From: Marsupella aquatica
Lineage: Eukaryota > Plantae > Marchantiophyta
DNA: 64,000 bases
Assembly (NCBI GenBank): GCA_973895155.1
Contig: OZ316895.1
Location: 13,379,186-13,443,185 of the forward strand
Reading direction: 5' to 3'
Within the stretch, counting starts at the first letter, position 1. Each line of letters opens with the position of its first letter. A model generated the notes under the pieces. It was not told the DNA's origin. It made no database searches and was given only the letters and a program-made list of their open reading frames with translations. The position numbers and the translations under genes were made by a program. This document shows positions 5,313 to 64,000 of this stretch, one piece after another.

Positions 5313-8300
5313 TCAGTCTCGCATCTTCTCTGAAATACTTCTTCCATATCTCACACCTAGCTGTGGTGTCCTCAGAACGGACCCAATTTCCAAAGCCCTG
5401 GGCCATGCCCAGCGAGACGGGTGTGGAAAGTACTTCGTTATAATTCTGTTCGCTGTCTGCTCTAGTTTGTCATCCTCAAGCCCATTGTGCCCGCTTCTCA
5501 AATACACAAACACCTCTAGCATGGAGCTCTCTGTTTCCTTGACGACTCGCTGGTGAAAACCCAACCATCCTATCTCTTGCAGTTCCGAATGCCATGCAGA
5601 TATATATGGACATCTTTGAATCTGCAACAGCTGCAAAGACTTCAGCTGCCTAAAACTCTGAGGCAGGGACTTAGCATCAATGTCAGACAGTCGGAGCTTC
5701 TGTAGTGACAAAAGCTCGCCTAAGCTATGTGGTAAGCTATTGACGCCCGTGATCTCCAGCTTGACCAGGGAGTACATAGGGCCCGACGTTGAAGTCCATG
5801 TCAAGCTATTGCAGTAAGATATTTTAAACTTCTGAAGTGCACATAGCCTTCCAAATGATTCTGGCAACTCTTCGAGTTTAGGACACACAGAGATCTCCAG
5901 GGCCTGCAGCCTAGCTAGATCTCCGAAGGACTCCGGCAACTTTTGGATGTCTTCACAGCAAAGGAGATGTAGGGTCTCAAGGGATGAAAGCCGGCCAAAT
6001 GATTCTGGCAGGGCTTTTAGGCGGAAACACTCCAGACTTAATTTCTTTAAGGACGAAAGAAGCCCGAAAGAGTCTGGAAGAGTGACAAGACCTGTATTGG
6101 ATATGAACAGCTCCTGCAGAGATGCAAGACTCCCAAAGGAATCAGGGAGGCTTGTTAATCGAGATCCGCTTGAAAGACTGATGCTCTGCAAGTGATGGAG
6201 GTTACCAAAATCCTTTGGTAATTGCTGGAAATCCCCCTCAAACTTAAGTATACGAAGCTCTGAGAGACTTGCAAGACTCTCTGCGATGTCATCGAGATTC
6301 TGTCTGGACATTAGAGCTCGGGCGTCAAGTTCAAGAACAGCAAGCTTATGAAGGTGGGACAATCCATTCAGTTCTGGTGTGCTGGAACCCGTAATACGCC
6401 ATTGCAGTAAACACAGCCCTTGTGGTAGACTGTCACAAGATCCACGGACAGGAATATTCTTGAGGATAAGGAATTTAAGGTTTGGCAATCGAGTGAGAAA
6501 ACTGATATCAAGGTTAGAACCCCATTCTTTCCTCCATCTGTTCAGCATCAAACCCTTAAGCTGAAGCTTCTCCTGCGTTCAGATGACACAACAGTCAGCA
6601 ACAAACGACCATTCACCAGTAGAAGTAGAGATCATTGAGTAATTCTTCTTGAAGTAGTGGAAGAAACTGCAAATAGATACTGAATGCATCACATTAAAGC
6701 TGCCAGATAAGAATCACACCTGAACTTCGCCCAGAAGCTTCGGTACTTGATCTTCATGAATAGAATTAGAAATCCTACTTTGTGACTTCAGGGCTATGCT
6801 CCTGCCCAGATCTCTTAGCAAATCATGCGTGTATACAATGTCTACGCTTAGCTCAGACAGGTGCCTCTGTCTAACCAAGCCCCTGGCAACCAAGGTTGAC
6901 CAGAAAGATTCCGAATTTTTCCAACAAGAGCTCCACGCTGCGTGAATTTTGTTCATTGGCCAGCCATAGAAAATGCTTGCCACATCTATAAACATACTTT
7001 GCTCTTGACATGCAAGACTGTCATAACTCACCATCAACTTTCTCAATAACATACTCTTGGAACTGCCTTGGAGGGATTCTACATCATAAAGCCTTGTAAT
7101 ACATTCCTTCCATGCTTTGTCTGTGTATTCTTCATACTTGGGTCTGTATAAACTGCAACCTATCACTTCAAGTGCGAGTGGGAGGCCGTTACACTTCACA
7201 ACCACTTGCTGTACCAAACCCTTCAAATTCGTGAGCTGGGGAGGAATATTTGGCTGCCTGAAAGCATGGTGGCAGAAAAGCTTCTTTGAAGCCTGCTCAT
7301 TTAGGTTTCGGGCCCAATGGATGGAAAATTCCAATACCCTCAATTTTTCCAGTTCATGGGCAGTTATGATGACGCGGCTTTCCTGTGTGAACCAGGCTGC
7401 ATCAAACACAATACGTAATTGTTCTCTTGAGTTGACATCATCCATGACGAGTAGCACTCTTTTTCCTTTGAGAATACTCCAGTCACCTTTACAGTTCTTC
7501 AGCTTCCTTCCATATTGATATAAGTTGGATAGAATCTGAGTCTCTAGCTTTTCAATCGTTGAACAACCTTTTAGAGTGTCGATGAAACATGTAAACTCGA
7601 AGTCGTATGAAATTGTGTTGAAGACAGCCTTTGCAATTGTTGTTTTGCCAATCCCTGCAGCCCCGACTATAGCCACTAATGGAGATTCCTCCAGTAATTG
7701 TTTCACGTTCTCCACTTGCGAGTGCAGACCAGCAGCATGGAGTGGGACTCCTTGACAAAGGTGAACCTGTACGTAGTCATTGATTAAGGATATACTCTTC
7801 ACTAAGATCATATAATTTTATAACTTTAGCCAAACTGAAAGTGGCTATAGTAAAATTGAACAAAGTCCTTTCGATACACAATTCTCTTGAAAATTACTAC
7901 CAGAAAGAATAATATGTTTGCAATCCTGCTTTGGTCTTTTATCGTATTTGTTTATTGTCTAGAAAGCAAGTAAAATATCTAACTCAGTAGAGAGTTGTAC
8001 CTTGCCAACGATGCTGAGGATAAATGAAATGAGGTGCCTGTAGCTACTGCAAGACTTTGCCTTCGGTTTACAAATTGTGACGTGATCCTCCCCTAGCTGA
8101 GCAAAATAGTCCATGTCACATCGTGCAGATTCTTCTGGAACTACGATCAAGCCCCGCGACAGTCCTGGCTGCACAAGTATAGGAAAGAAATGCAATCACA
8201 TGATAGGTCGTTCTATATTCCAAGTAAGAAATGCAATACTGGCGTGATTGCAGACTTTAGTAAGAATTACTGCAGTCTCTGCTACAAGACCCATTTTCTG

Positions 8301-10062
8301 CTGTTTCCTTAAGAAGAGAAAGTTTACCACAAATAGCTCTCGTGCCTCTCCGAGCCCAGATGCCTTCCACTTATACTTTCTCCGAAGCTCACAAAAGCTG
8401 TCATTGAGGCTCTCAGTCTCCTTGTTGAGGAAACTCAAATACTTCAGTAAAGAGCTGGGATACCAGGGCAAGTAAGCTGCTATACTCGCAAGCCTAGAGC
8501 CATGATGAGGAGTTGCATAAAAGAATACACCCCTCATATTGAGAAGAAACTTGTGAAGAGCATCTTCTGATGATTTGGAATTGTAGATGCTCTCTGCCTT
8601 TAGACAAACTTGCTTAATCACCAGCCCACCCAAGCTGTGTCCCACCAGTATCACTGGATTCGTCTGGCCCACTCCTGATGCACAATAGTACATTTTTAGT
8701 TTTCTGTACGGGTCCACTCACTCGTAACTAGAGCACAACTTCTTTCATGTTTACTATTTGGGCAAGGGGTGCCAAGTACCGTCTCGTTGCCATTTTGTAG
8801 TGTCTGTCCCTCCCCAATGTAGACCTCCATGAATTTAATTCCATTCTCTCTTCTGATTGCCTGAATAATATCTCTACGACAATTTGTCCTCATTTGTAAT
8901 AATGGCCACCAAAGAGACATAAAAGATGGACAACTAACCTGCTTGACAGACAAGAAAGTCCAGCAGGCTTTCTCCAGTAGCCTCCATATCCCTATTGCCT
9001 TGCTTGGACCCTCTGATCGCTGATGAGTCGTAAGAAACCGAGAGGATTCGAGCTTGGGGGAAATCATGAGCCAGCCAAGCCTGTGGCCAGCACTCATCTC
9101 CCTTTGCAGACAACCACGTTTCTGTATATGCTGTGGAATAGTCTTGGGCTTGGAGGCCGTGGAAAAAGACAATGTCAAGGTTGGAAGCAGCAGAGGAAGG
9201 CTTGTAAAGCTCATACACGGCATCGTTGAGCTGAAAGTTGATGCAAACGGACAAATACCAGAACGGAGCAAACAAATGATTTTTAATAATCTCAAGGGCT
9301 AATTTACTAAACATCGCGAATCCTCCAAAATGTAACAATAGATGGCTATTTATCGTATTCCGAACATGACATGAAATTTATCGCCTAATAGAGCTGACTT
9401 GCGGCTATACACGAAATTATATTTTCTTTCAGATCGACGCGCAAACTAGCAGGCTGTTCTCTTCAACGCAGGACTTTTCTAACAAAGGGCTGCGAGTGAG
9501 TTTATAGAACAGACACAAATAGGACCAAGCATAATAACCATGCTCGACACTTAAGGTTGATTTAAACAGATTTTCTATTGCATTGAAACAGGAGCATCAC
9601 AAGAATTCCAACTAGTCTGAGTTGGACAGTTTCTTTGAGCTCGTCTGAAATTGTTTCAGCTCAACTCAGAGGAGCGTAAATTCTTGTACCGCTCCTGTTT
9701 TCACTGCAGTACAAAATCTGGAACAGAGCAAACTTGAATACATGAACAAGGAATCTATTAGGAAGAGAACTCCACAGAGAATAGACATCTGAATCAAAAC
9801 AGGACGAACTGATCACTGCCAACTCTCTCGACAAAGAGAGATGCAATGAGCCCACAGGATCTGGTGACGGTAAGTTCAAGATTTCCAAGGCAAAGCACAA
9901 ATTCACACATCTGCAATGCAATTAGAGAAACTCCATTCCAAGATCTGATTTTGTGATGTGGGCGGTTGCGGTAGGCGCTCTTCTAACCTTTGTGGGTCGA
10001 GCTGTGGACACAGGCACATGTGGAGCAGGAGCTTCAGCGGAGTTGAGCATTGTCATGTCCAT
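5313..10062 (-). CDS. alpha/beta-hydrolase-NB-ARC-LRR immune receptor (HNL class); exons approx. 10062-9988, 9230-8939, ~8675-8326, ~8170-8020, ~7767-6720, ~6573-5313
   Basis: Hydrolase motifs DIVFFHGL, RILSVSYD, GHSLGG, FFYATPHHGS and DHVTICKP. NB-ARC motifs GAAGIGKTT, VLLVMDDV, GLPLAL and THDLLRDLG. About 10 LxxLPxSFGxL LRRs. The first exon (MDMTML...PTK|gttag) and the 3' end are less certain. Confidence 0.88.
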
Positions 10063-43084: not shown

Positions 43085-44512
43085 TCAAGTTGGAATGCAT
43101 TCTACAAGATCGTTCAGTGCATTCTTGCTCACTCCGCCATCTCCTACAGCTGCTTCAGCCTTCCTCTTCAGCTCCTGAATTCTTGACCTTAGAACGTTTC
43201 CTTTCTCCGCCAGTAGAAACCGCACTACACTCTCCAATGTTTGAGGTTTATTTGGACCCGTAGAAAAATCTTGGGGTCTCACCTCGACCGCAATTTTTAG
43301 CACATCCACTATATACCTGCAATTTATAAACTGGTCATTATGCAACTGTGGCCAAGCTCCCATTGGTACCCCCGAGATTATGCTCTCTATGATTGAATTC
43401 CAGCCGCAATGAGTCAAAAAGCCTCCAATAGCAGAGTGTGCTAGGATTTGCAATTGTGGCACCCAATCACTGACAACCAGCCCTTTTCCTCTCGTTCGCG
43501 CTTCAAAATTCTGAGGAAGACCTCCCTCGCTTCCACTGGGAATCACCCACAGAAAACTTTGCCCACTAGCCTCCAGAGCTAGAGCCAAGTCCTTCATCTG
43601 CTGGGGGTTGAAATGAAATATGGTGCCGACGCAGACATAAACGACCGATTTGGGTGGTCGCCCATCAAGCCATTGCAACCAATCTGCTCCTGGGCTGACT
43701 GAAGTCGCCACAAAGGACCGATCCTTAAAGGTTGCAGGATTCGAAAGGGGCCCAACCAGAAATAATTTAGTGGCCTTCCCTCGATCTATCCAACTCTGTC
43801 GAATTGCGTCGATCTGTGGGGCTTCCAACTCGTAAAACGTGTTCACAATTACTCCATCGGCTTGTCCTATGGCAATTCCGAGGGAATTCACAAACTCTGC
43901 ACCGAGCCGAGAATTCGTCATCTCTCGAAATTGTAATGCTGGAAGACCTGATATTTTCATGAGGCCCTCGAACTCTCCTAACGACTTTTTTCCCCCTGGC
44001 TCCTCTTTCATGGTCAAAATGCCATCGGCAAACAGCTGAGAACATGCCTGCAGTGATCTAACAAAGATCGCTCCGCAGCTAAAAAACTGATAATAAGGAA
44101 TATTCAACTCGTTTGCTACATCTCTGGCCCACGTCAAAAACCTGTCGCCAATTATACAAGTAGGTCCAGGAAGTCCTGCCTTCTGGTCTTCCAACAACTT
44201 GTTCAAGATCGGCTGAAAGAGGTCTCTCGCTGAAGCCAGAAAGACTGTAATGGTCCTAATGTCCCCCGAGGTTCTAGGGGACCCAGAATCCTCGTAGGAA
44301 ACCAGATTGAAGTCAAGCTCTAGCACGTCGTCGAACGTGTTCAGAAAGGTGATGTGCTCTTCTAAAGCCACAAAAGTGACAGTGACACCTCGCTTAGCCA
44401 GCTCTACAGCAAGCCTGAATATCCCTGCAAAGTGGGCATGGAAGACCACTGGCAAAATCAGTGCATGTTTTTTAACCCTTTGGGACTTCTTCAAACAGCA
44501 GTCGGCATCCAT
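43085..44512 (-). CDS. Family 1 UDP-glycosyltransferase, intronless, 475 aa
   Basis: PSPG box WVPQLQILAHSAIGGFLTHCGWNSIIESIISGVPMGAWPQLHNDQ; also WLDGRPPKSVVYVCVGT, NTFYELE and PTCIIGD. Confidence 0.95.
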   Translation of the reverse strand: MDADCCLKKSQRVKKHALILPVVFHAHFAGIFRLAVELAKRGVTVTFVALEEHITFLNTFDDVLELDFNLVSYEDSGSPRTSGDIRTITVFLASARDLFQPILNKLLEDQKAGLPGPTCIIGDRFLTWARDVANELNIPYYQFFSCGAIFVRSLQACSQLFADGILTMKEEPGGKKSLGEFEGLMKISGLPALQFREMTNSRLGAEFVNSLGIAIGQADGVIVNTFYELEAPQIDAIRQSWIDRGKATKLFLVGPLSNPATFKDRSFVATSVSPGADWLQWLDGRPPKSVVYVCVGTIFHFNPQQMKDLALALEASGQSFLWVIPSGSEGGLPQNFEARTRGKGLVVSDWVPQLQILAHSAIGGFLTHCGWNSIIESIISGVPMGAWPQLHNDQFINCRYIVDVLKIAVEVRPQDFSTGPNKPQTLESVVRFLLAEKGNVLRSRIQELKRKAEAAVGDGGVSKNALNDLVECIPT

Positions 44513-45825
44513 TTTCAGGAATGTCTCTGGACCCCTTCTGCCTCTGCTCTTGTGGGCTGCTCAAGGCAGTTTCGCAATTCACGAAATTCCAGCTTCGTAA
44601 ACGTTCTCAGGATATAACTTCGTACGTGACGAGGGGATGATGGGGAACTAAAGCGCTGGCACAGTCAATCCTGTACATCTCGAAACCAAAAATCTCATCA
44701 TGTTCAGCATTCGAGGAAGACAAAGGCACTCGTGGTCTACATTACATTAGATTTCGACCCAATCTCTGTACATTGGCTTTCACCCTACACTCAATATTTC
44801 TCGTACGTGTCCCCTCCCAGTGAACTGCTTTGCCTGGGAAGCAATGTTTCATAAATGTTAAGCAGAAAAGGGCCAATTTACTGAAAGGGTCCAAAGGAGC
44901 ACAACGGAGTACAAGCAAAAGAAGTCCAGAGAGTACAAACACGAACTCAAACACGAAACTCAAAAAACTCAAAAGAAGAGGGCAAATGCAAACCCCAACA
45001 ACTTAGAAATCAATCCATAATACCCAAAAACACCGTTCCAACATTCCAATGAGTCTGTCTTTGGATGCTGAACCCGAGTGTGGGTCTTCTCAATCTCAGT
45101 TGATTTGCCTCAGTCCATGACACTCTTGTTACCGAATACCGCTCCTAATCCCTGTCTAATTGCTATATTTAGTGATTGTCATAGTGTACTGGATGGATTG
45201 GGGACGATCGGTGACACTTGATGACTACGGTCATGTACTAATTGACATGAGGTGGACCGTTGTCCTCTCCATCTTTCCATGGCAGTTGGAGATCGATCTA
45301 CTGGAAATACACTTCGAAAGCCATTTTTTAATTGGTCAACCAAGGTCGAGGGCCAAGGGCCCATCTCAGGTCAGTGGATCACTTTCCTCCATTTGAACCC
45401 TCCAAATTCGTTCTTTTCTCCGACCTCAAAATGGAGGAGGATTGTCAGGGACCATCACGGAGCGAGGGCGTGGCGGAGGAGCAGAGCGAGGCTATGGCTC
45501 GAGCACGGAAGGGGACCTGATTGCTTGTAGCTTGCTGATGCTGTTTTTCTGTGAGCTAGGCTGTGAGTATGCTGGCCGAGACATTTCCAGTGGAGAGTTT
45601 CTACGACAGCAATAGCCCACCTGCCGTGGTTCCAGCCGCCTTCCAGGAGCTTCGATGATCATACTGTAGGGAGCCCACAGTGGAGAATAGAGTAGTGGAT
45701 CTGCTCTGATGAGACCGGGAGAGGAGCTTCGATCGCAGACTGTGGCGGGCCCAGCCCATGCCCACTTTTGTAGAGCTTTTATGGTCGTCTGCGCGGTCTC
45801 CCTTCGCGATTCGAAGATTGTGAAT

Positions 45826-49568: not shown

Positions 49569-50266
49569 TTGTTTTTTCTTGCATTGATCAAACACTAATA
49601 TCTGTGTTTGTTTCTTGTTGAGAACATCATTGTTCCTGTTTGGGATTGAACTTGATAATGTGGATCAATGTGGTGCTAAAGATTTTGGAAGGAGCTTCCA
49701 TGGGGGTCCATAAATATCTAGTTAGTGGGGACCAGAATTTTAATCATGATCTATTTCTTGTGTAAACCTAGGTGGACTACTTTGTGTGAAGCACCAAGGT
49801 TGATTTTAGCAGATGTGATGAAGTCAGACAATGGAGGGTATGGGAATACCTCAGTCTGCAAGATGCAAGCTATCTATTTTTTGCTTTGCTCTTTTTTTGC
49901 CAAAGTCCCTACTGTAGGTTACTTTAGTATTAAAGCCAGGTAAGTCCAAAAAGAAATTTCAAAAGGTGCATTGTTCATGCACAACTATTCTCCTTGTTAT
50001 CTCATGACTTTATCCCCCATTTTGCTAGCATATTCCTCTTTAGCATAGTATCTTTTGGATATTTTTAGCCAGAAGCTTTATTCACTATCACAAGTGATGT
50101 ACAATCTCACATGGCACAGTCATGGACAAAGCAAAAGACATAGAGTAAAAGTAGGATCCCTCTCCCTCCCTCTCTCATCCCCCTGTCCTCATTGTTTGTG
50201 GATTTTCCAGTCGCATCATATAATTTAGAGAATTTATGTCTCTATGGGTTACTAAATATTCCAAAG

Positions 50267-50617
50267 TGTCATGCCGAGGGACAGTGCCGCTTGTGCACAT
50301 CGGCATGTCCCTCGCATGCCCGCTAGGTATGGTTAGGGCTAGTGTACTACTTGAGTTAGTGTCATGTTCTTGTAGCGAGTCTGGGCTGTTCTTGAGGTTT
50401 GTTAGTGTGACGCCTGGACCCGGTCCTACTTAGGGCATGTTTTTCTTTGCCGTTCTTCAGTTCTTCTTGAATCGCTGTGAGACAGTTTTTCAGAGGCTGC
50501 TCGTCGATTCCGTACACGGAATTCACACAGTGATTCGTTAGATGCTCCCGGCCGATCTTGGCATCTCGCCGGTTTTCGATTCATTTTCAGTACGTTTGTT
50601 TCTATCACGCCTTTTAT
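50267..50617 (+). repeat. Repeat A1 (351 bp), 5' terminal repeat
   Basis: Near-identical to 59491-59843 apart from a 2-bp indel and a small change near the 3' end. Confidence 0.95.
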
Positions 50618-50630
50618 TCAAGAAGAACTG
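50616..50630 (+). promoter_or_regulatory. Putative self-priming primer-binding site
   Basis: ATTCAAGAAGAACTG is the exact reverse complement of CAGTTCTTCTTGAAT at 50458-50472 inside repeat A; no TGG-type tRNA PBS follows A. Confidence 0.7.
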
Positions 50631-53600
50631 CCGAGTTAGCGGTGAGGAGAAGAAGTTTGCTCGTGGCAATTTCGACAATTTCTGGTGAAGCCATTGCAAT
50701 TTCTTCGACGGACATTGGAGTGACGAGTTAAAAGTTATGGGTTTATTGTGGTGTTATGTGTATACTTAAGTGTATACACATAACAAGGGACCCGGATTAT
50801 TATTTTCTGGCCGCAACTTGTTTCGCGACTTGCTGTTGTCGACTGCTGCATCGACGCCGACTTCAAAGGGCGCACCCACGCTCGCATTTTTAACGACCTC
50901 TTTGGGGCCCTTTTTCGTTTACCGGCCACTACTGCCTCGGCCACCGTGCGCCCCTTTTCTTTCGCCCTTTTTCGCCTTGCCAATCCTCGAAGTTCCTCCC
51001 TCCGTTTGTTTTCCTGCCTTTTTCTTCTCTCGGTATCTCGCAGGCTATGCGCATAGGGCATCGTGCCCTCCCACTGGCAGCATTTAATTAACGAGAGGAG
51101 GGGGAGCGAGTGCAAGCCGGGAGGAGGAGGCACAGAGGCTACGAAGCATTAAAGGGGGGGGAGTACATTCGACTCCCTCTCTCGGGACTCCTGCCAATCA
51201 CGAGGCCCAACTTACAGGGCATTAAAGGAGGGGAGGGGAGGGGAGTTCAATTCGAACTCCCTCACACGGTGACACAGGAGTCTTTTTGCAGGGCACGAAG
51301 CCCATCCAACAGCATTAAGGAGGGGGAAGCAACAGGAGGGCACGAGGCCCTATGAGGAATTAAAGAGGGGGGGAGTACTCGCGACTCCTCTCTCGGGAGT
51401 CACTCGCTGCCAGGGCACAAGGCCCAAAAGGGGGATAGGGGGAGCTCATAGTGGGGCACGAAGCCCTATGCAGGGCCCGAGCCATTAAGTTGTCACCTCG
51501 CCTCAGCCTCGCCTCGCCTCGCCCTGCAGCATAGGGTACCGTGCCTCCCGAGTGTGCGTACACCTGCTTCTTTCCGGCCTCTTTTTCTTCCAGGGAGCCC
51601 GACGATGTATCCACATTGGGCACTGACCGGTGCCCTTTATGTGTATACACAGACCCCTGTCACCGACCAGTGCCCTTTATGTGTATACACAGACCCCTGT
51701 CTATACACATAACGGAGGCCCCTTTTGACCATTTCCTCTTGTTTTCTTTCCATTCATTTTCTTGTGAGCATATTTTCGGCAGGGCCGGTCTACACATTTC
51801 TGCCTCGCAGTGTTGTTTCCTTTGTGGGTTACATTTCATAGCCTTGGGGTTGCCACACCTTTTTCTTGTCAGTTTCTTTCCTATTGGCACCCCGGGTGAG
51901 CATGCAGCATGTCAGCAGAGGAGCCGAGTCGTAGCAGCTCATCGCCACCGACACCCCGGTACCACTTACGGAGTGATCCATGACCGTTGGTGCCAATTTC
52001 ATTGGAGTCTCGGCAATTTCGACGACGTCCACAGACAGCAGCAGCACCCACACCACGCAATCCTCCTGCTACATTTGGCGGTCGCTTCACCACTACTCCG
52101 AAGCCTGCTATCACTTCATTGCCATTTACCCCTTCTACATCCGTGGTTGTTCCTGCTTCACCGACATATAGCATGGACGCCAGCCACTCATCTGGCCGCA
52201 TTGAACGCTTCAGCGGGCGGCCAGGCACTGTTTCTTTACGTGAGTTCAAATCCACTTTCTACACTATCGTTTACGAATTGGAGTTGAAGTACGGCAGCAA
52301 TTTCACAAATGCTTTTGCATTTAAGCAGCTAGCCAGGTATGTGCACCACGAGGCTTTGGATGTGTATGAGCAGCACTCTCAACGGCTGCTTGCTGTCACA
52401 CAATTGCCTAACCCTGCCTATGCCAGTGCAATTGCGGCTGCCTCACAATTGGCATTACAGAATGCCATTGCAGCCCATGCTGCTGCTCCTGCCACTTCCC
52501 CTCCTACTCCAGTTCCTACCACTGCGCCAGTTACTCCCACTATCTTGGCACAGGCTACATCAGGCATTTCTCCCACCATTGATTCCCCTGCCTTTGTTGA
52601 TCCAATGGCTGAGTTTTTCCAGGTTCTTGAATTGGAATTCCCAATCAAGAGTGCTGACAAAATCATGCAGTTGGCGACCTTTGTGAGGCAGCGCGATGAA
52701 ACCTTGAAGATGATGTATCGTCGGCTTCTTAAGCTGAAGGAGGACACCCAGAGCATCACTGACCTGGAAGCTGCTCATCGTTATCTTCGCGCATTGGAGG
52801 GCACACCAGCTCTCCATTCACAAGTGTTGCAGCAAGTATTCTCAGAGTTTGGAGACAGCTACACATTGCTCAATGTCTACGACACTGCTGAGAAACTTGA
52901 GTTGGCCCATGCACATTATGAGGCCAGTATTGAGCGTCCACCGCGATCTAGGTACCAGGCTGCTGCTCCTACAATGGCCACCCCTTCCCGTGTGCCACAG
53001 TATGCTTCCAAGACCAAACCAGCACATGCTGCTTTCATGCTGCCCTCTTGCAACTACTGTGGCAATCCTAATCACAAGGCTAATGAATGTGATATTGTTG
53101 CTGAGGACCTGTCTTGTGATTTTTGTGGGAAAGTGGGCCACTTGGAGGCAGTTTGTTTTGCCAAATTCCCAGAGAGGAAGCAGCTACGACAACAGGCCAC
53201 TCATCCTACTCCTGTTTCCACTCCCCCACCAGCTAGGAGGGCTCCTACTGCATCAGTTGCTCCTCCTTCCAGTGGCCAAGCAACCAGTGCCAACAAATTG
53301 CCCAAGCAGCCACAGAAGCCCCCAACTCAAAAGGAGGCTCACAACGCACAGGCAACTCAACTCCAGTCTCTAACTCATGAGGTTGAGTCCTTACGTGCCC
53401 AACTTGCCAACATCAAAGGCAAGTCCACTGCCTCTGCTGGTCCTTCTCAACCGGCTGGTCACGTGCAACCCATCCCTGGCCCAGGCACCGCTGACAGTTC
53501 AGCACCTCTACCCCGCTCTTTCTATGGCTTACCATTTGATGCTCATATGGGTGAGTGTGTGCTGTCCTCTGCTCCACAGCCTGGCCTTACAGCAGAATTT

Positions 53601-54999
53601 TCAGATTCATTCTGCCCTTCCTATTTTGCTTACCAGCAGGCCAGTGCTGCCTCCCGTATTGCTCCCACACGCCGCATTGTACAGGCTGATGGTCTTGCTG
53701 CCGGTCCTATGACTAGAGCCAAGGGAGCTCGGGCTATCATGCCCCAATCTTTTCAGCCACTCACACTTGCTGAAGAGCGCACCTTGTTGGCGAGGGGGGA
53801 GGGAGCTGCAGCTACATCCATTCCACCACCAGGTGCTGCTGACATTTCACAGGGAGTTGTTTCTCCTGAGCTGCTTGAGCATTTCACCTTCGGTATGGCA
53901 CAAAGGATTCTTACAACTCCACTTTTCAGTTGCCATGATTTACAGCTGGATGCTAGAGCTGTCCTCAGGGCGCTAGAGGGTTCACTGCATTCTTCATCAG
54001 CCCCTGTGACACCGGTTTTGGAGGTCCAATCTCATGTACATACTGGACCTTCTTCTTCTCCTTTACATGTTTCCACTGGTTTGGCTGCCCCAGTACCGAT
54101 TGCTGCTGATTGTGTGACCAGAGCTACACTTGATTCTGGTCATGCTGCTCCATCTTTCCTGGCTATGTTGTTGAGTGGAAAGACCGTGGACACTAACTCC
54201 CTTCACAAGGTACCTCATCATTTGCCGAGAGTGGTGCCTAGTGACAGGACTTCAGTTTCCACCACCATTGCCATTGTTGACAACAGGAATTCAGTGGTCA
54301 AGTTGGAGGGTCACACTCCTCAGGTGGTCATGCTAGACACAGGTGCTCAACCAGTGATATTGGGCATTCAGTTTGCCAAGAAGATGGGACTGTTGACTGA
54401 TCATTTACAGCAATCCAAGTGGCACATTCGGACTGCTAGTGGCACTGTGGAGGATGTGCTGGGTGAGAGTTCTACTTTACTCACTCTCACTTTTAATGGA
54501 GGTACAGATCAGGAATTGCATTTCCCAGTCAGATGTCTGGTTACCAATGCCACTACGTATGATGTGCTCATTGGCCAGGAGGCTTTGTTCCCACCAGGTT
54601 TTACCATTGACAACTGGCATGAGCATGCATACTACAGAGTTGATTGGCATAGTGATGGCTCACACTTGGGCTACATTCCACTTGATTTGCATGGTGCCCA
54701 TACACCTATGGCTCACCACTGTGTGTTGAAAGCAGTGCACACAGCTACCTATGTCAACCACCCATTGCAAGATTGGATTGAGGAGGATGACGATGAGGTG
54801 GCTGCTGCACATGCTGCTGCACGTATAGCAGCACTTTCCAGCAACGTGGATCATCAACCAGAGGTGGTACAACGGCTCCAAGCAGCCCATGGACCTTTGG
54901 TGGCTGCATTGCGCAAGTTTGAAGACCTTGGGCAGCACAATGGACAGCCAATAGCCCCAATCTTGAGCGCACCATTTACATGGACTCCTGCTCCGGATG

Positions 55000-55940
55000 G
55001 CCTTACATTGCTTGAGCTTTTTGGTGGCATTTCTACAGGCCTGGAAGCTCTCCTACAGTCTGGCATGGTGATGAAGCAGTACATCTATGTGGATATTGAT
55101 CCAGGTGCAAGGCAAGTGACTGAATCCCGTCTGCTGGAATTTTCAGAGCGATTTCCTCAGCAGTTCCCACACAGTGCATGGAAGTCTGCATTTTCTTTCT
55201 TTCCTTCAGATATCCAGCTTGTCCAGCACCGGCACTTAACCCTTCTTGGCTCCCTTGATTTGATCATAGCTGGTTGGGAATGCCAAGGGTTTTCAGCTGC
55301 TGGTCACGGTGCTGGACTTCATGATTCTCGTTCTGGCCTTTTCACAACATTGGCTCAGATTCTCACCTGGGCTCAATCCCTTTATCCTGCTGTTGGTTAT
55401 ATCATTGAGAATACTCCATCTCAGTTTGACCAGCGACCACAGGTCAAAGAGGATTTCAGTGTGGTCCAGCACTACTTGGGACCACCCCTTCTCATTGATG
55501 CAGTGCACTGTGGTTCTTATGCACATCGTCTTCGTAACTTTTGGACTAACCTTGCACCACCTTCCTTGTTGGAGTTAGCTCTTCACCACACATCCAGGGA
55601 CACTAACCTCACAGTGGACCAGATTTTGGATCCTGACAGTTCTTGCCAACCAGTTACACGGCAAGAGCTAGCACCTTGGTATCCAGCCAATACCATTGGA
55701 CAGCCCCGTGCTGCTTGGCCTACATTTGTGTCCTTTCCAGGTGCACATGCTTTTCAGGGTGATGGTCCTGGCCTGGTTTACCGACATTCTACCGGTACAT
55801 GGGATGAACCTAGTCCTGAGGAGAGAGAACGAGCTATGGGCTTCCAATCCAGTACTACAGGTCACACCCAGATCACCAGGCTGGCCAGGAATGCTTTACT
55901 TGGCAGGGTAATGGATCTCAATGCTCTCACTTGGCTTCTG
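55000..55940 (+). other. DNA cytosine-5 methyltransferase domain (DNMT3-like) within the retrotransposon polyprotein
   Basis: Motif I LLELFGGISTG, II YVDID, IV DLIIAGWECQGFS, V DSRSGLF, VI IIENT, VIII AHRLRNFWTNL, IX/X ERERAMGF...TRLARNALLGRVM. Confidence 0.88.
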
Positions 55941-58900
55941 GTCACTTGCATCCTTTTTCAGATGTCCATTCCTCCAGCATCAGGAGTTCCAGTTCTACCA
56001 CTCCATGGTGCTGCTACATGGCATCCAGACCAGGTGCACTTACCTTTGTCCAACACTCACCACTTCAGTCCCAGTGTTGGGGGGGAGGAGGTCCCTTGTA
56101 ATGTGGCTGACATTATTTCTGAGTTTCATGGTGTGGATCAGACCAGAGCAACAGATACAGCAGGCCTTGGAGAGGCCTCATCACCTTATCAGCAGCATGC
56201 TAGCAGCTTGGATAGTGGAGAGGCTAGCACTTCTGGCTCTTCAAGCACGAGTACATCAGGTCCTATTCCTAGTGTTGCGAACTACACATTTATCATGGGC
56301 AACCACTTGAGTAAAAGACAAAAGGACCAGCTGCTGAATTTGCTCCTCAAGCATGAGAATGTGTTTGCTTTCTCTATGAAGGACTTGGGTAAGTGCAAGA
56401 CTATGCAGTTCTCCATTGAGTTGGCTGATGAAACACCTATCTTCAGGCGGAGACACCGTTTGAGTAAGCATGAGTGGCAGTTGGTGGATGAGAGGTGCCA
56501 AGAGCTCTATGAAGCTGGTCTTATTCAGCCATCTACATCAGATTTTGCGGCAGCTACAGTGATGCCAGCAAAGAAGGATTCCAGTGGATTGTGGACAGAG
56601 AAGCGCATGTGTGGGGACTACAGGCCACTAAACCTGGTCACACCCCAGGACAGGTACCCCATGCCACGGCCAGAGGAGCTATTTGATAGCATTGGAGACT
56701 CAAACATCTTCACTCTTGTGGATCTAAGGCAAGGCTTTAACCAGATTTTGCTGCTTGCAAAGGACCGCAAGAAAACAACTTTCTATGGTAGTAACCAACT
56801 ATGGGAGTGGTTGGTGATGCCATTTGGCTTGAAGAATGCGCCCATATTCTTTCAAAGAGTCATGGACCAGGTTCTTCAAGGTGCTGAGTTTCTGAAATGC
56901 TACATTGATGATGTGTTGGTCCACAGCAAAGGATTTGACCAGCATCTACTTGACCTTGAGGAGCTATTCATGAGGCTTAAGAAGGTGAACCTAAAGATAC
57001 ACCCCAAGAAGTGTGAATTTGCTGTCAGATCAGTAGTATATCTTGGGCATCGCATTCTTCCAAATGGAACCATGGCTCACTGGGCCAAGGTGGTATCCAT
57101 CTTGGAAATGCCCACTCCTACCGATGTTCACACTTTGAGGAGTTTTATTGGGTTGTGCAATTACTACCGAATCTACATCAAAGATTTCAGTACCATTGCA
57201 CACCCATTGTATGCTTTGTTGAAAAAGAATGTGACTTGAACATGGAGTACAGATGCTGAGGCAGCATTTGCCACTTTGAAGGAGAAGCTCTCAGAATACC
57301 CGGTGTTGAGAAGACCTGATTTCAGCAAGGTCTTTGTGTTACACACAGATTGGAGTGCCCTTGGGATTGGTGCCATTCTGGGCCAGCATGATGAGGAAGG
57401 TAAAGAGTACGTCATTGCCTATGCATCCAGGAGCAACAATCAGGCAGAGAGTCATTATTCTTCTTATGAGGGTGAATGCCTTGCTGTTGTGTGGGCTGTC
57501 ATACATTATAGGCCCTACCTCTATGGGACCAGGTTTGTTCTCTACACCGATCACCAGCCCTTGAAGTGGTTGATGACCAACGACAAGCTTACTGGCAAGC
57601 TTGCTCGTTGGGCGCTCATACTCCAGGAGTATGATTTTGAGGTAATTCATAGGCCTGGTGTGACACATCAGAATGCTGACACTATGTCCCGCAGCCCTTT
57701 GATTACCTCTGATGATTCCTCAGATGCACGGCAAGATTTTGACCAGGCTTCCATCCTGCCTACATTTCATGCATCGACCTATCTTGCTTTGCTGCCATGC
57801 TATGTTGTTGACCAACCTGTGGTGGACATATGGGAGGACAGCGACACTCTGAGATTTCTGCAGCATGGGGAGTACCCCTCACATGTTACTGCTGCCCAGA
57901 GAGACCGAATTCAGCAAAGGTCCAAGCGCTACTTGTGGAAGGGAGATCATCTCGTGCGTTGCTTGCCAGACAGGGAAGTGGTGGTTCCACCTATTCATGA
58001 GAGGGTTGGCCTTATCCGTAAGGTACATTCTGAGCTTGGTCATTTTGGTGTTAAGAGGACTTACAGCCTCTTGGTCCCTCATTATCATTGGAGAGGCATG
58101 CATGGCCAGGTTCGAGATGTTATTGCCCGGTGTGAATAGTGTGATAGGGTGAGGACTTCCTTCACATCTCGACAACCCACACTTCATCCACTCCCTATTC
58201 AGGGCATGTTTTATCGTTGGTCATGTGATTTGGCTGGAGAATTACCCCTCACGTCTCGGGGTAATCTCTACATCATGATCATGATAGAGCATTTCTCCAA
58301 GTGGATAGAACTTGTGGCATTGCCGGATAAGACCTCCCATAGCACCAGCCAGGCATTCCTACAACAAGTTCTCAGCCGCTTTGGAGCTTGTGCAGAATGT
58401 CTCACTGACCAGGGCTCAGAGTTTAGAGGAGAGTTCCAGGAGCTGCTTGATCAGGCCCTCATTGATCATCGCCGGACATCACGAGATCACCCACAGGCAG
58501 ATGGCTTGGCAGAGCGCATGGTTCAGACATGCAAGAAGGGCCTTCGGAAGATCTGCCTCACCAAAAACAAGGAGGATTGGGACCTGGCCTTACCCTACAT
58601 TGCCATGGGGTATAGGATGTCCAGACATGCATCACTGTCTAACTTTTCTCCCTACTTCTTGTTGTTTGGTCGTCACCCAGTTCCACCTTCTGCTATTGCT
58701 TCTCACATGTTTCAAGTGGTGGACTTGGATTCAGTTGTGACTTGGTCTGATGTGATCTCTGAGAGGGCTGCCCTATTCAGGAGGGTTATGCCCATGGCCA
58801 TGGAGAATTTGGCCATTGCACAGCACAGGGACACACTGCGTTATGCACACACACGAGGGGGCACTTTTCAGCCCAAGGTCAGGAAGTTTGAAGTGGGAGA

Positions 58901-59120
58901 TTTTGTGTACTTGCAGCGGCAAGCTAACGACACCCTGGACACCTCTACCAGTCGCACTATTCTCAGGGTCAAAGCTATTCGACCGTCTGGAGTGCTAGAG
59001 TTACAAGGGGCAGATGGGCGCACAATTGCTGACAATGCCAAGAATTGCGCCCCTTGTCATCTGCCTAACCTGGATCCCACCATTGTGACTTCTACTTGGA
59101 TTCCACCTGTGGACTACCCT

Positions 59121-59255
59121 TGCAAAGTGTGTTTGCGAATTGATGATGCTGACCAGATGCTGCTGTGTGACAATTGCAATGGAGGGTACCATCTTTTCTG
59201 CCTTCGGCCTGAACTTACCCAGGTGCCAGAAGGGTTATGGTTTTGCCCTTCCTGT
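59121..59255 (+). other. PHD finger at the integrase C-terminus
   Basis: CKVC...MLLCDNCNGGYHLFCLRPELTQVPEGLWFCPSC (C4HC3). Confidence 0.92.
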
Positions 59256-59305
59256 GCTCCACGTGCTATCTGACTTTTCTTCAGGCCTCCTTTTGGCTGT
59301 GGTCT

Positions 59306-59312
59306 GGGGGGG
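59306..59312 (+). promoter_or_regulatory. Polypurine tract (G7)
   Basis: GGGGGGG directly abutting the start of repeat B1. Confidence 0.6.
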
Positions 59313-60019
59313 ATACAGAGGTTTACACCTCCACTACGTACATACCACCTCAGTTGCTTTTTCTTGGCACCTGTGAATGTGATTGGACTTTTTCTATGCA
59401 TGTTGGTTGCTAGCAACTTGCACATATGCATTGCCGGTGACTTGTATGTTTTTGATACACTATGGCTACGATACTATATGTCACGACAGCTGTCATGCCG
59501 AGGGACAGTGCCGCTTGTGCACATCGGCATGTCCCTCGCATGCCCGCTAGGTATGGTTAGGGCTAGTGTACTACTTGAGTTAGTGTCATGTTCTTGTAGC
59601 GAGTCTGGGCTGTTCTTGAGGTTTGTTAGTGTGACGCCTGGACCCGGTCCTACTTAGGGCATGTTTTTCTTTGCCGTTCTTCAGTTCTTCTTGAATCGCT
59701 GTGAGACAGAGTTTTTCAGAGGCTGCTCGTCGATTCCGTACACGGAATTCACACAGTGATTCGTTAGATGCTCCCGGCCGATCTTGGCATCTCGCCGGTT
59801 TTCGATTCGATTTTAGTACGTTTGTTTCTATCACGCCTTTTATATACAGAGGTTTACACCTCCACTACGTACATACCACCTCAGTTGCTTTTTCTTGGCA
59901 CCTGTGAATGTGATTGGACTTTTTCTATGCATGTTGGTTGCTAGCAGCTTGCACATATGCATTGCCGGTGACTTGTATGTTTTCGATACACTATGGCTAC
60001 GATACTATATGTCACGACA
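59313..60019 (+). repeat. 3' repeat block: B1 (59313-59488), GC, A2 (59491-59843), B2 (59844-60019)
   Basis: B1 and B2 are both 176 bp with 2 substitutions seen; A2 matches A1. Confidence 0.95.
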
Positions 60020-61224
60020 AAAGCCTTGAATCATGATCTACAGAATATGTCCACCACACATGGATGTGGTGGGCATCCATGTGTCCCTTGCAAACTTTGT
60101 TATGACACTAGATATGAACCATTAGATCATCATATTATTGCAATGCTACAGTAGATATTCATTTCTTTTTTTTCTCCTTTCTAGGTTTTTGTGGTTTGCA
60201 TCATTCTTTTGAGTTTAGTTTGTGTCCTCTCTAGACCTCTTTTGCTCTTACTCGAGTGGACTTTGGCTGGCTCCTCTTCATAAGTTGGTCCTTTTTCCTT
60301 CTTTGTGGTAAAAGAAAACCTGAGTGACAATGTCATGACAAACGAGAATCTACTGCTTTGCTAGAATCACTCATGAGGGAGGATCATCCCTGGACCAAGT
60401 TATGACAGTTGTGATTATTTGAAGGATAAAGAGAACTCTCCCATGCAAAACAAAAGAGGAGTTACTTCTGTAGTGGCGATTCAACAAAAAAGGTGTTTTG
60501 ATTCCTATTCATGCACAATGGGAGCAGTCATGAGGGCCTTTTTAGATTACCCTGCAGTCTTCCCCCAAACAAAGCACCATGGAATGTGTTCAAATAGTGG
60601 GCCACGGGGCACTCTATTTGAATAGTGGGCCTGGGGTGTTGTGTTCAAGTTTTGACTAATTATTTGTTTTGGTTTTTTGTACTTGCAGTGTTGTGTCCAA
60701 AAATTGCTGTTCTGATTGACTATGGGTATTGTGTTTGAATTTTGGAATTGCGAGATGAATTAACCTTGGCTGTAAGGAGTGTTTGAGTTCATGCAAGCTC
60801 TTTTACTTCCCCACATTACCTTACAAATCTGAAGTTTACTATTGTGACCTAGCAAAACACGTATGTGAAACATGCATATTTTTGTCAGGGAATAGTTCAG
60901 CATGTGATGTGTCTAAAATAACGTACTGACTCTTAAAAATTGCTCTAAATGGCCACATTATCAACTGAACATAATAGATATTGTAAACATAACTCTTTGC
61001 TTGCCCACCCCCCCCCCCCCCCACAAAAAAAAAAACAAAAAAAAAAACTTTTCTCAAAGTGACGATTTACTAGGGACCTTGATCATCAAAATTTGACAAC
61101 ACTGGAACTTGTCACACCATTCTAGGTAGTGTTAGAGTGTATCGTACTATCTAGATCCGTATGTTTGGTATGTATGCTATATGAGCCAATAAGGTTCTGT
61201 TAGGTTTGTGTGAGAGGGTACTTC

Positions 61225-61811
61225 TCACTTGTGAGACATTGAAAGGTCATCTTTCAATGTAATCTTGCTACAATCGGCACAACGATCCCGATCAACAATA
61301 CCCCATCGATCCCACACCGATCTGATCACACACGTATGTCAAGCCAACGCACCTTGCACTACTCAAGGAATCCACGTTACACAAGCGGAGCTCACAGCCA
61401 CCATAGCCACACTCAAGCTCCTGTTGAACTAAGACATCATTCGCAACGACCATACAACCATGACTTATTCCATGCACACGTAGTCGACACAATCTCTACG
61501 TGGTTCACCTCTTCTCCAAGGCTACGTCCACACGAACACTCAAGCTTTACTTCAAGAGTAAACGAACACACATGCTCTCCCTCTTCCTCAAGTTGCTCCG
61601 TTACAATGAGTAAGCACCACTCACCAGCGGCTTACACTAGCCCTGGTATATACAAGGTCACACACGACTAACCTAACCTCAGCTAAGACCCTAACTGTGG
61701 TTAGCCTAAGTGTCGTAACCTTTGAGTCACAAGACTAAGAGCAATCCTTAATAGCTCCTCTCTCTCCAAGGCTCAACATTGAAAGATGACCTTTCAATGC
61801 CTCACAAGTGA
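61225..61811. repeat. 36-bp inverted repeat pair flanking an LTR-like segment
   Basis: 61225-61260 and 61776-61811 are reverse complements with 1 mismatch; each arm contains the hairpin cattgaaag-N5-ctttcaatg. Confidence 0.75.
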
Positions 61812-64000
61812 AAGGCTGGACAGATTGTTGAGCAGGAAGGGACTGCTCAATCTACTGCTAAATAGCAATCATCGGCTATCTCTTCTACCCTACAAAGGGA
61901 AATATGGGATTTGGTGGAGAGTTGGGAACCACAGCTTGGCCCTAAGTTGATTGGGGAGGAGAGACGTTGCATGCATCGATTCCTGAAGAGTTACTGGAAT
62001 TGTTTTGCATTTAGCATGAAAGATTTGGGGACATTAAAGGGTCATGGTATTCAGATTGAATTGGCTAGTGATGCGCCAATCTTTCGTAGGCCATACCGTT
62101 ACAGTGACATGGAGAGAGCTCTGATTCAAAGTAGAACTCAAGATTTGTTGGAGGCTGGATTGGTGGAGATTTCATATGGGGAGTATGCATCTGCCACAGT
62201 GATGCCAGCCAAGAAGGATGTGCATGGCAATTACACAGATAGGCGCATGTGTGGTGATTACAGACCCATTAATCGCCAGACAAAATCTGATAGATATGCC
62301 ATGCCCACACCTGAGGAGATCTTTGATGCTGTGGGGCATGCAAAGGTTTTCAGTTCATTGGATCTGAGGGGTACCATCAGCTTCCAATTAGGCATGCTGA
62401 CAGGTCCAAGACAGCATTCTGGGGGATTGATTCTTATGGCAAAGATCGTTTATATCAGTGGTTATTCTTACCATTTGGGTTGAAGAATGCACCAGCTGAG
62501 TTCCAGAGAGTCATGGATCGAATCCTTGCAGGTTTGGATTTTGTCAGATATTATATTGATGATATTTTGGTCTATTCTTCTACCGTGGAAGAACATCAGC
62601 AACACTTGCAGATTGTGTTGGAGAGATTGAGAGCACATTGATGGGTTGAAGCTCCATCCTAGCAAGTGTAAGTTCTTCCAAGACCAGATTGAGTATTTGG
62701 GCCACACTATATACCCAGGGGGATTGGGTGTACAGCAGACTAAAGTGGAGGCCATTACACAGATTCCTTGTCCTACTGATGTGAGTAGAGTTTATGCATT
62801 CTTGGGATTGGCGAGCTACTACAGGAAGTATGTTAAAGGATTTAGCCAGCTTGCTAAACCTTTGACCATACTCACTAAGTTGGATCAGGAATGGATTTGG
62901 GGTAATGACCAGGAGCATGCCTTTCAGGAGTTGAAGCAAAGGTTGGCATCATCCCCTATTTTGAGAAGACCCATTTCAGGTAGACCATTTCAGCTACACA
63001 CTGATTGGAGTGGAGTAAGACTTGGAGTAGTGCTGACTCAGAAGGATGATGAGGGGAATGAGTTTGTTGTGGCTTATGCCAGTAGATCAAACAATTCAGT
63101 AGAGGCTAAGTATAGCTCGTATGAGGGAGAGTGTTTGGCAACAGTGTGGGCTGTTGCATACTTTCGTTGCTACTTGTTTGGTAACCCCTTCACCTTGATC
63201 ATTGATCATCAGCCTCTTAAGTGGTTAATGGAGTCTGACAAGCTTACAGGGAAGCTTGCACGATGGGCATTGTTGTTACAAGAGTATGATTTCCAGGTGG
63301 TGCATAGGCCTGGAAAAGTGAACTTGGATGCAGATGGATTAAGCCGCAATCCATGTACCAGTCAGCAGGATGAGAGTGGAGCCAGATAGCATGATGAGTC
63401 AGATAAGGAGATGGTGCCAGGATGGCATGCATCTGCCTTTCTTTGTTGGGTGCCAGCATACAGTGGATCTGTGGACTCTACCTCATTGGATGGAGTGGAT
63501 GATGAGTCTTTAGATGTGGATGTTGGTGAGGTAACTTCTGGACAACAAGATATTCACAATGATGTGAGAGTGTTGGAATATATGCGCAGTGGTTCTATTG
63601 TTGGCAATGTTGATGCCAAAGAACGTGACAGGGTTCTACAGAGAGCCAAGAGGTTTCGATGGGAGGGAAACCATCTTTTGAGAGTACTGCATGATGGTAG
63701 GGTGTTAATGGTACCAAAACCATCACAACGAGTACATTTGGTGCGACATGCACACGAGGAGTTGGGTCACTTTGGTGTGAAGTGCACTTATAGCTTGCTA
63801 CAGACACAGTATTGGTGGCGTGGTATGCACACTCATGTCCAACAGTTGATAGCTAAGTGTGTGGTATGTGATAGAGTGAGAGCATCATTTAATGCTCCCA
63901 CTCCCCAGTTGCACCCGTTGCCGATCATGGGTTTGGGATATCGTTGGAGTTTGGATTTTTCTGGTCCATTACCTCTTACCCAACGTCATAATCGGTATGT
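61812..64000 (+). mobile_element. Degenerate Ty3/Gypsy pol fragment (RT-RNaseH-IN), runs off the window end
   Basis: Motifs ASATVMPAKKD..RMCGDYRP, YIDD (~62552), YASRSNN..YSSYEGECLA and HEELGHFG..CVVC. Frameshifts near 62370 and ~62640, stop at 63387. Confidence 0.9.

Follow-up and report, generated by a model that had tools for sequence, protein, structure and literature searches.

A candidate integrase attachment site inside the repeat of a Ty3/Gypsy element with split direct repeats in the liverwort Marsupella aquatica

Why should a retrotransposon carry, in the middle of one of its repeats, a palindrome whose two halves are also the outer ends of the whole element? According to the textbook scheme for LTR elements and retroviruses, the tips of the DNA are fixed by reverse transcription and these same tips are trimmed by integrase, and circles are for the most part dead ends. 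The question is raised by a 64,000-nucleotide stretch of contig OZ316895.1 (the window, from whose first letter positions are counted), which contains a 9.75-kb Ty3/Gypsy element (50267-60019) built as A1-internal-B1-GC-A2-B2. Two complete LTRs around the internal region were not found: the 5' side consists of A only and the 3' side of B-GC-A-B. Its repeats and borders are as follows.

50263..50266, no strand: left target-site duplication AAAG (same 4 nt at 60020-60023)
50267..50617, plus strand: repeat A1 (351 bp), starting with TGTC (left att half-site); likely the 3' part of U3 plus R-U5
59313..59488, plus strand: repeat B1 (176 bp), starting with ATAC and ending with CACGACA
59482..59495, no strand: conserved att core CACGACAGCTGTCA, with the palindrome at 59485-59494 and the GC (59489-59490) that is absent from integrated ends
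59491..59843, plus strand: repeat A2
59494..59542, no strand: hairpin next to att, also present in A1, with bulges (z -3.0 as RNA, -4.5 as DNA)
59844..60019, plus strand: repeat B2, ending with GACA (right att half-site)
60020..60023, no strand: right target-site duplication AAAG

The junction between B1 and A2 reads GACAGCTGTC, the perfect 10-bp palindrome at 59485-59494 that had been described first, enclosed by cacGACAGCTGTCatg at 59482-59497. Taken alone it is at chance level and no evidence at all, because there are 67 perfect palindromes of at least 10 bp in the window (overlapping repeats counted separately), and its evidential weight rests on its position at both element ends and on its conservation. 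According to the original reading both outer ends equal this junction without the central GC, and this is what we found: the left end reads CCAAAG/TGTCATG (50267) and the right end CACGACA/AAAGCC (60019), with the 4-bp target duplication AAAG on both sides. The termini TGTC...GACA thus provide the TG...CA ends and short duplication characteristic of Ty3/Gypsy elements. A1 and A2 are three small indels apart, and B1 and B2 two substitutions. The 7-nt left flank TCCAAAG (50260-50266), together with the duplication AAAG, is also common to another insertion (L070), by chance or by target preference.

Within the window's own family, four of 23 public runs were compared over 58600-59843, three of them covering the junction (X5 had no cover there). 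Other copies end at 59488 in at least 12 contigs of X2 and at least nine of X3, with flanks that differ (agreement 0.44-0.45), and start at 59491 in at least five contigs of X3 (flank agreement 0.49). The ends of other copies therefore fall on the same bases next to unlike flanks, and no variant was located within 59485-59494 among 40 of the 82 variant rows from the public runs over this family. A second family was assembled from the best 80 of 524 confirmed metagenome loci (61-85% integrase identity to the window). A scorable B after the integrase was present in 68 of the 80, the other 12 being left out as cut off or rearranged, and removal of 10 duplicates by flank gave 59 distinct elements including the window, 28 long (B-NN-A-B) and 31 short (A-internal-B). 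The split-repeat architecture was therefore seen in 27 distinct family-2 loci, and it appears again in a third family (L097 and L098, 56% integrase identity), where the order is G tract, B1, CACGACA-GC-TGTCACG and A2, with L097 continuing to a B2 that ends in CACGACA. The abundance of 10-bp palindromes would suit a one-off rearrangement or an assembly artefact with a chance palindrome, a possibility that we consider negligible and that is refuted by identical ends in two runs, each from a different study, and by the same layout in the 27 other loci and the third family.

Conservation, the other property that had been singled out for checking, held across the three families. The 14 nt at 59482-59495 are invariant across six well-preserved copies, and the core CACGACAGCTGTCA stays identical in such copies down to 56% integrase identity, with the GC lost at integrated ends. 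The spacer between B and A is 2 nt in all 28 junctions scored, window included; the scoring itself demanded a 2-nt spacer, and the BLAST map gave no further A-after-B locus except L074, which stands outside the 28 and also has a spacer of 2 nt. The letters of the spacer vary (GC 10, AC 8, AT 4, GT 4, AA 1, TA 1), even between two versions of the same locus (GC versus AC in L076 and L006). Only four of the 28 junctions still have perfect palindromes, and at 24 of 28 the 10-mer is either perfect or changed by C>T/G>A alone, as expected when methyl-cytosine decays. Among 19 family-2 loci with both ends, nine have TGTC...GACA immediately flanked by a perfect 4-bp duplication, five have one with a single transition and one with two, one was unscorable and three lack a duplication. 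When the window's A and B were used as BLAST queries, no match was found in family 2. No relatives of the element were found among viral contigs, where 16 sequence-pattern matches were taken as chance since they encode no matching protein.

Some of these loci deserve comment of their own. L097 and L098 are eukaryote-like contigs that had been binned with a cyanobacterial genome, probably as contamination from a eukaryote. In L098 the frames are open over long distances, and one stop separates the methylase part from the reverse transcriptase (RT); the 127-nt end overlap of this contig was rejected as a real circle and treated as assembly collapse. L031 (6131-6610) contains a solo A-B that begins with TGTC, ends with GACA and is flanked by a perfect 4-bp duplication; it cannot be told apart from an ordinary solo LTR. 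The short A-internal-B forms may be a primary product, the result of B1-B2 recombination or an assembly collapse; short and long forms do not differ in age (median end branch 0.084 versus 0.072, p 0.66). Differing numbers of a 15-bp unit at the B ends were considered as signs of alternative cutting or of B2 inheritance, a reading given up because unit number differs between L021 and L071, two versions of a single locus.

The coding capacity indicates which enzyme would act on such a site.

51987..59273, plus strand: gag-pol frame with protease, C5-DNA methylase, RT, RNase H, H2C2, rve integrase and PHD; in-frame stops at 57237 and 58137 in this copy

Pfam matches follow the Ty3/Gypsy domain order protease-RT-RNase H-integrase. 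A DNA methyltransferase (DNMT, PF00145) is placed between protease and RT (E 7e-6 in the window, 7e-12 in L098), and the integrase ends in a C-terminal PHD (PF00628); a chromodomain was not found in it, the PHD standing in its place. The window integrase matches Ty3-G Gag-Pol (E 3e-11) and foamy virus integrase, and D27, D87 and E122 in the rve domain of the 58149 ORF are presumably its triad, with D,D(35)E spacing. The named homologues of the integrase-PHD part come from Calypogeia fissa (89%), Sphagnum magellanicum (66%) and Klebsormidium nitens (51-56%). As for the methylase, its catalytic motif is W-E-C-Q in the window (51987-57236, residue about 1097), E-C in 10 of 13 family-2 loci examined (L008-L073) and W-P-C-Q in family 3 (L098). 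The usual motif is P-C, and to judge from these residues the activity may differ.

Split repeats are otherwise known from tyrosine-recombinase elements, and the order A1-coding-B1-A2-B2 is shared with PAT, TOC, Ngaro and VIPER. A DIRS-type tyrosine recombinase that inserts a circle in trans at the palindrome would account for this arrangement. However, the element keeps an rve domain and holds no recombinase: no Pfam match to a tyrosine recombinase was obtained in the three pol pieces or in the other 27 ORFs that reach 90 aa (30 ORFs of the element in all). Besides, the 4-bp duplications are of unrelated sequence and the central GC is lost, both of them DDE-type footprints. We regard the recombinase as very improbable. 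Unlike PAT, TOC, Ngaro and VIPER, this element combines a DDE integrase with a 4-bp duplication, a G tract and a self-primer. With high confidence, and judging from the sequence comparisons, we take GACA-GC-TGTC to be the integrase attachment site of the element, at which integrase would also cut. The original reading as recognition and cleavage site is in agreement with the ends, duplications and conservation; the cutting itself is deduced from its products. The hairpin said to follow the palindrome is real, if bulged, and family 2 has one of different sequence at the corresponding place (z -4.1 to -4.5) and family 3 a weak one (about -9 kcal/mol); any role of the hairpin in cleavage would be speculative.

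If att is inside a repeat, where are the ends made by reverse transcription? The candidate signals are found at the borders of A and B.

50427..50432, plus strand: putative TATA position, TACTTA, at -32, inferred from TATAAA at this place in family 2
50459..50470, plus strand: putative self-primer, i.e., predicted RNA 5' end (complement extends over 50458-50472)
50618..50629, plus strand: putative primer-binding site (PBS) directly after A1, with no tRNA-type TGG start
59306..59312, plus strand: G7 polypurine tract (PPT) directly before B1

The PBS side (50616-50630) is perfectly complementary over 15 bp to 50458-50472, against a maximum of 11 in an internal control of 861 windows. A 15-bp complement is present in the window and in the three family-2 loci tested, and none of 1000 shuffles reaches it in each. 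Primer sequences differ by family (AGTTCTTCTTGAAT in the window, AGTTTTTCTAGAATT in family 2 and ATCTTTGTCAAG in family 3): families 1 and 2 have two positions changed on both arms, and hence compensated, and family 3 has a different complementary pair of 12-13 bp. In all three the A1 border coincides with the self-complement. Of 20 family-2 loci, 19 have a recognisable PBS motif, and a TATAAA lies ~32 nt upstream of the primer in family 2 and a TATA motif ~30 nt upstream in family 3. Complementarity between the predicted RNA 5' end and the site that follows the 5' repeat is shared with Tf1, sushi and Tcn1 (PMC4600332, PMC6317226), and the same signature is given for Tf1 and Tj1 in the part of PMC4600332 compared. 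In folding of the window RNA from 50459 to 50640 the primer/PBS duplex reaches a pairing probability of 0.94, which falls to 0.03 for an RNA reaching to 50700, in which a competing fold is better by 1.6 kcal/mol. On the other side, at least five G in the 8 nt preceding B1 were found in 57 of 58 family-2 loci, the tract preceding B1 and not A, and G7 stands before B1 in both L097 and L098. A PBS after the 5' repeat and a PPT before the 3' repeat are thus present as in Ty3/Gypsy elements, and would presumably serve in priming. By eye, the 5' untranslated region (51085-51460) has about six TTAA(A)-G-rich tracts that look like extra polypurine tracts.

By standard LTR logic the repeat used in reverse transcription extends from PPT to PBS, which here means B-GC-A. 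With priming borders at B and A, the tips would lack TG/CA and att would lie inside this LTR, so that the cDNA ends would have to be joined. Going by these motifs, a self-primed B-GC-A LTR with an internal att is quite probable. The RNA would begin near 50459 and its first 11-12 nt would pair with the site after A1, self-priming as in Tf1; plus-strand priming at the G tract before B1 would then give a linear cDNA [B-GC-A]-internal-[B-GC-A], whose predicted tips, ATAC... and ...TTAT, carry no TG/CA. The A tip would next be joined to the B tip, a step of which the variable joint would be the scar. At the upstream palindrome copy the DDE integrase would cut after CA on both strands, with loss of the GC, and insertion would generate the 4-bp duplication and the product that is seen, A-internal-B-GC-A-B, in which one intact att and a full LTR would be kept at the 3' side for the next cycle. 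This complete account, i.e., att stored inside the B-GC-A LTR, cDNA ends joined first and the molecule reopened at att, is the best explanation that we have and seems reasonably likely.

The place where the tips would have been joined can be compared between copies.

59838..59850, plus strand: A2/B2 joint (59843/59844), variable between copies; likely the joined cDNA ends

Whereas the B/A spacer is constant in length, the A/B joint is variable. By eye, 12 of 27 joints are flush, seven are two bases short and eight are of other kinds, including retained G or T and deletions; in the two-bases-short class the lost AT is common to both tips. Joints between the A end and the B start vary within the window's family too, with an extra T (X1 and X2), a shift (X3) or a replacement (X1). 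Such a joint resembles a fresh end-joining scar. The predicted tips have microhomology, AT in families 1 and 2 (window 50615-50617 and 59313-59315) and CAC(TTGA) in family 3 (L098 7413-7421 and 6948-6954), which may aid the joining. The joint classes do not cluster on the tree (14 changes versus 12.6 when shuffled), weak evidence because the tree is star-like (one starred branch of 24).

These joints bear on a proposal made for DIRS and PAT elements, in which the RNA includes B2 and the B/A junction serves as template for rebuilding att tips with GC overhangs, followed by conventional trimming and no internal cut. It has several attractions: the repeat order is that of the split direct repeats of PAT, Ngaro and VIPER in the parts of those reports compared (PMC4157794, PMC6681497), the existence of one permutation only is explained, and 3' processing of the HIV type takes off 2 nt (PMC1905944, in part). 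An inherited A/B joint, however, should be constant or track the tree, and it is variable and scattered; moreover, the A and B borders are exactly at the PBS and G tract, so that a PBS-primed minus strand would not copy B2, and B1 and B2 of one element have, by eye, subfamily variants in common. We consider templated ends unlikely.

A different constraint comes from the product that is missing. The mirror form A-B-GC-A-internal-B was found zero times, versus 10 long elements of the observed form with both ends visible (two-sided p 0.002), and no B was located upstream of A1 in 20 A1 copies checked. A plain symmetric 2-LTR circle predicts the mirror form to be as frequent as the one seen, and was rejected on this ground. 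It follows that only the upstream att would be opened alone, and some asymmetry is needed. The likeliest reason would be an end-to-end jump by which RT circularises the cDNA, with a stall close to the hairpin that marks this att; on these mechanistic models, the asymmetry could come either from this stalling or from integrase using the end-nearer att before closure. The latter leads to an order of events in which integration precedes repair: the upstream att is cut in linear cDNA, both halves are held and inserted, and host end-joining closes the break between A tip and B tip with no circle. The same product and variable joint are expected, and since the upstream att is nearer to the DNA end (176 versus ~350 bp) the missing mirror form could be explained. 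Nevertheless, a chromosomal double-strand break would be left at every insertion, and a majority of the 27 joints lack filler DNA and are flush or at most 2 nt off. We regard integration before repair as doubtful, and closure before internal cutting as moderately likely.

The closest description that we located is KnitGypsy-Dnmt3 of K. nitens, with a DNMT inside the Gypsy Pol (de Mendoza et al. 2018, PMC5890265) and, by the legend of Fig. 4c, a DIRS-like repeat arrangement with Gypsy domains. As far as the legend text allows comparison, our element is similar in its DNMT in Gypsy Pol and its A-coding-B-A-B repeats; beyond these features the comparison is one of integrase similarity (K. nitens proteins match the window integrase-PHD at 51-56%). 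The passages of PMC5890265 compared give no att, target-site duplication, primer or mechanism for KnitGypsy-Dnmt3, and its figures may show end details; "KnitGypsy" was not found in other papers of the literature searched. Tf1, sushi and Tcn1, in contrast to our element with its internal att and PHD, have att at the LTR tips and a chromodomain integrase in the sections compared (PMC4600332, PMC6317226). In HIV-1 and foamy virus the DDE integrase can cut the palindromic 2-LTR circle junction inside duplex DNA (PMC1905944, PMC4372172, PMC1180852, in part). That palindrome, however, is described as made by tip joining, on a side route, whereas the att of our element belongs to the LTR sequence itself, apart from the joint, and no other route would be open. 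Neither an LTR-internal att nor this insertion route was found described in the literature searched (subscription journals and Repbase being outside it). Apparently, then, the layout has been noted before and the mechanistic logic has not, making this a variant of the Ty3/Gypsy mechanism. We lean slightly towards a streptophyte lineage of LTR retrotransposons with att inside U3, cDNA obligatorily closed end to end and a DDE integrase acting as site-specific endonuclease.

If this is true, two jobs are separated, with the primers setting one pair of borders and att another inside the LTR, and a natural element would need its DDE integrase to cut internally, an activity that in HIV and foamy virus has so far been shown as a side route. 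On this view split direct repeats would amount to a two-LTR cDNA in circular permutation, explained by ordinary LTR priming, and would offer a testable template for how PAT, Ngaro and VIPER elements regenerate theirs. These high-copy elements with no paired LTRs, and their solo A-B forms mimicking solo LTRs, are likely to be missed or misread by LTR finders.

The surroundings of the element contain other repeats. A fragment of a second, related Gypsy element (61911-64000, with RNase H and H2C2 matches) is cut by the end of the window, and its own repeats were not found within the fragment. Between the two, at 61225-61811, 36-bp inverted repeats (97%) flank ~515 bp, possibly a small DNA transposon. 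Farther away, two stretches on the minus strand are, by eye, what we take to be a hydrolase/NB-ARC/LRR-like gene (5313-8717) and a UDP-glycosyltransferase-like gene (43085-44560).
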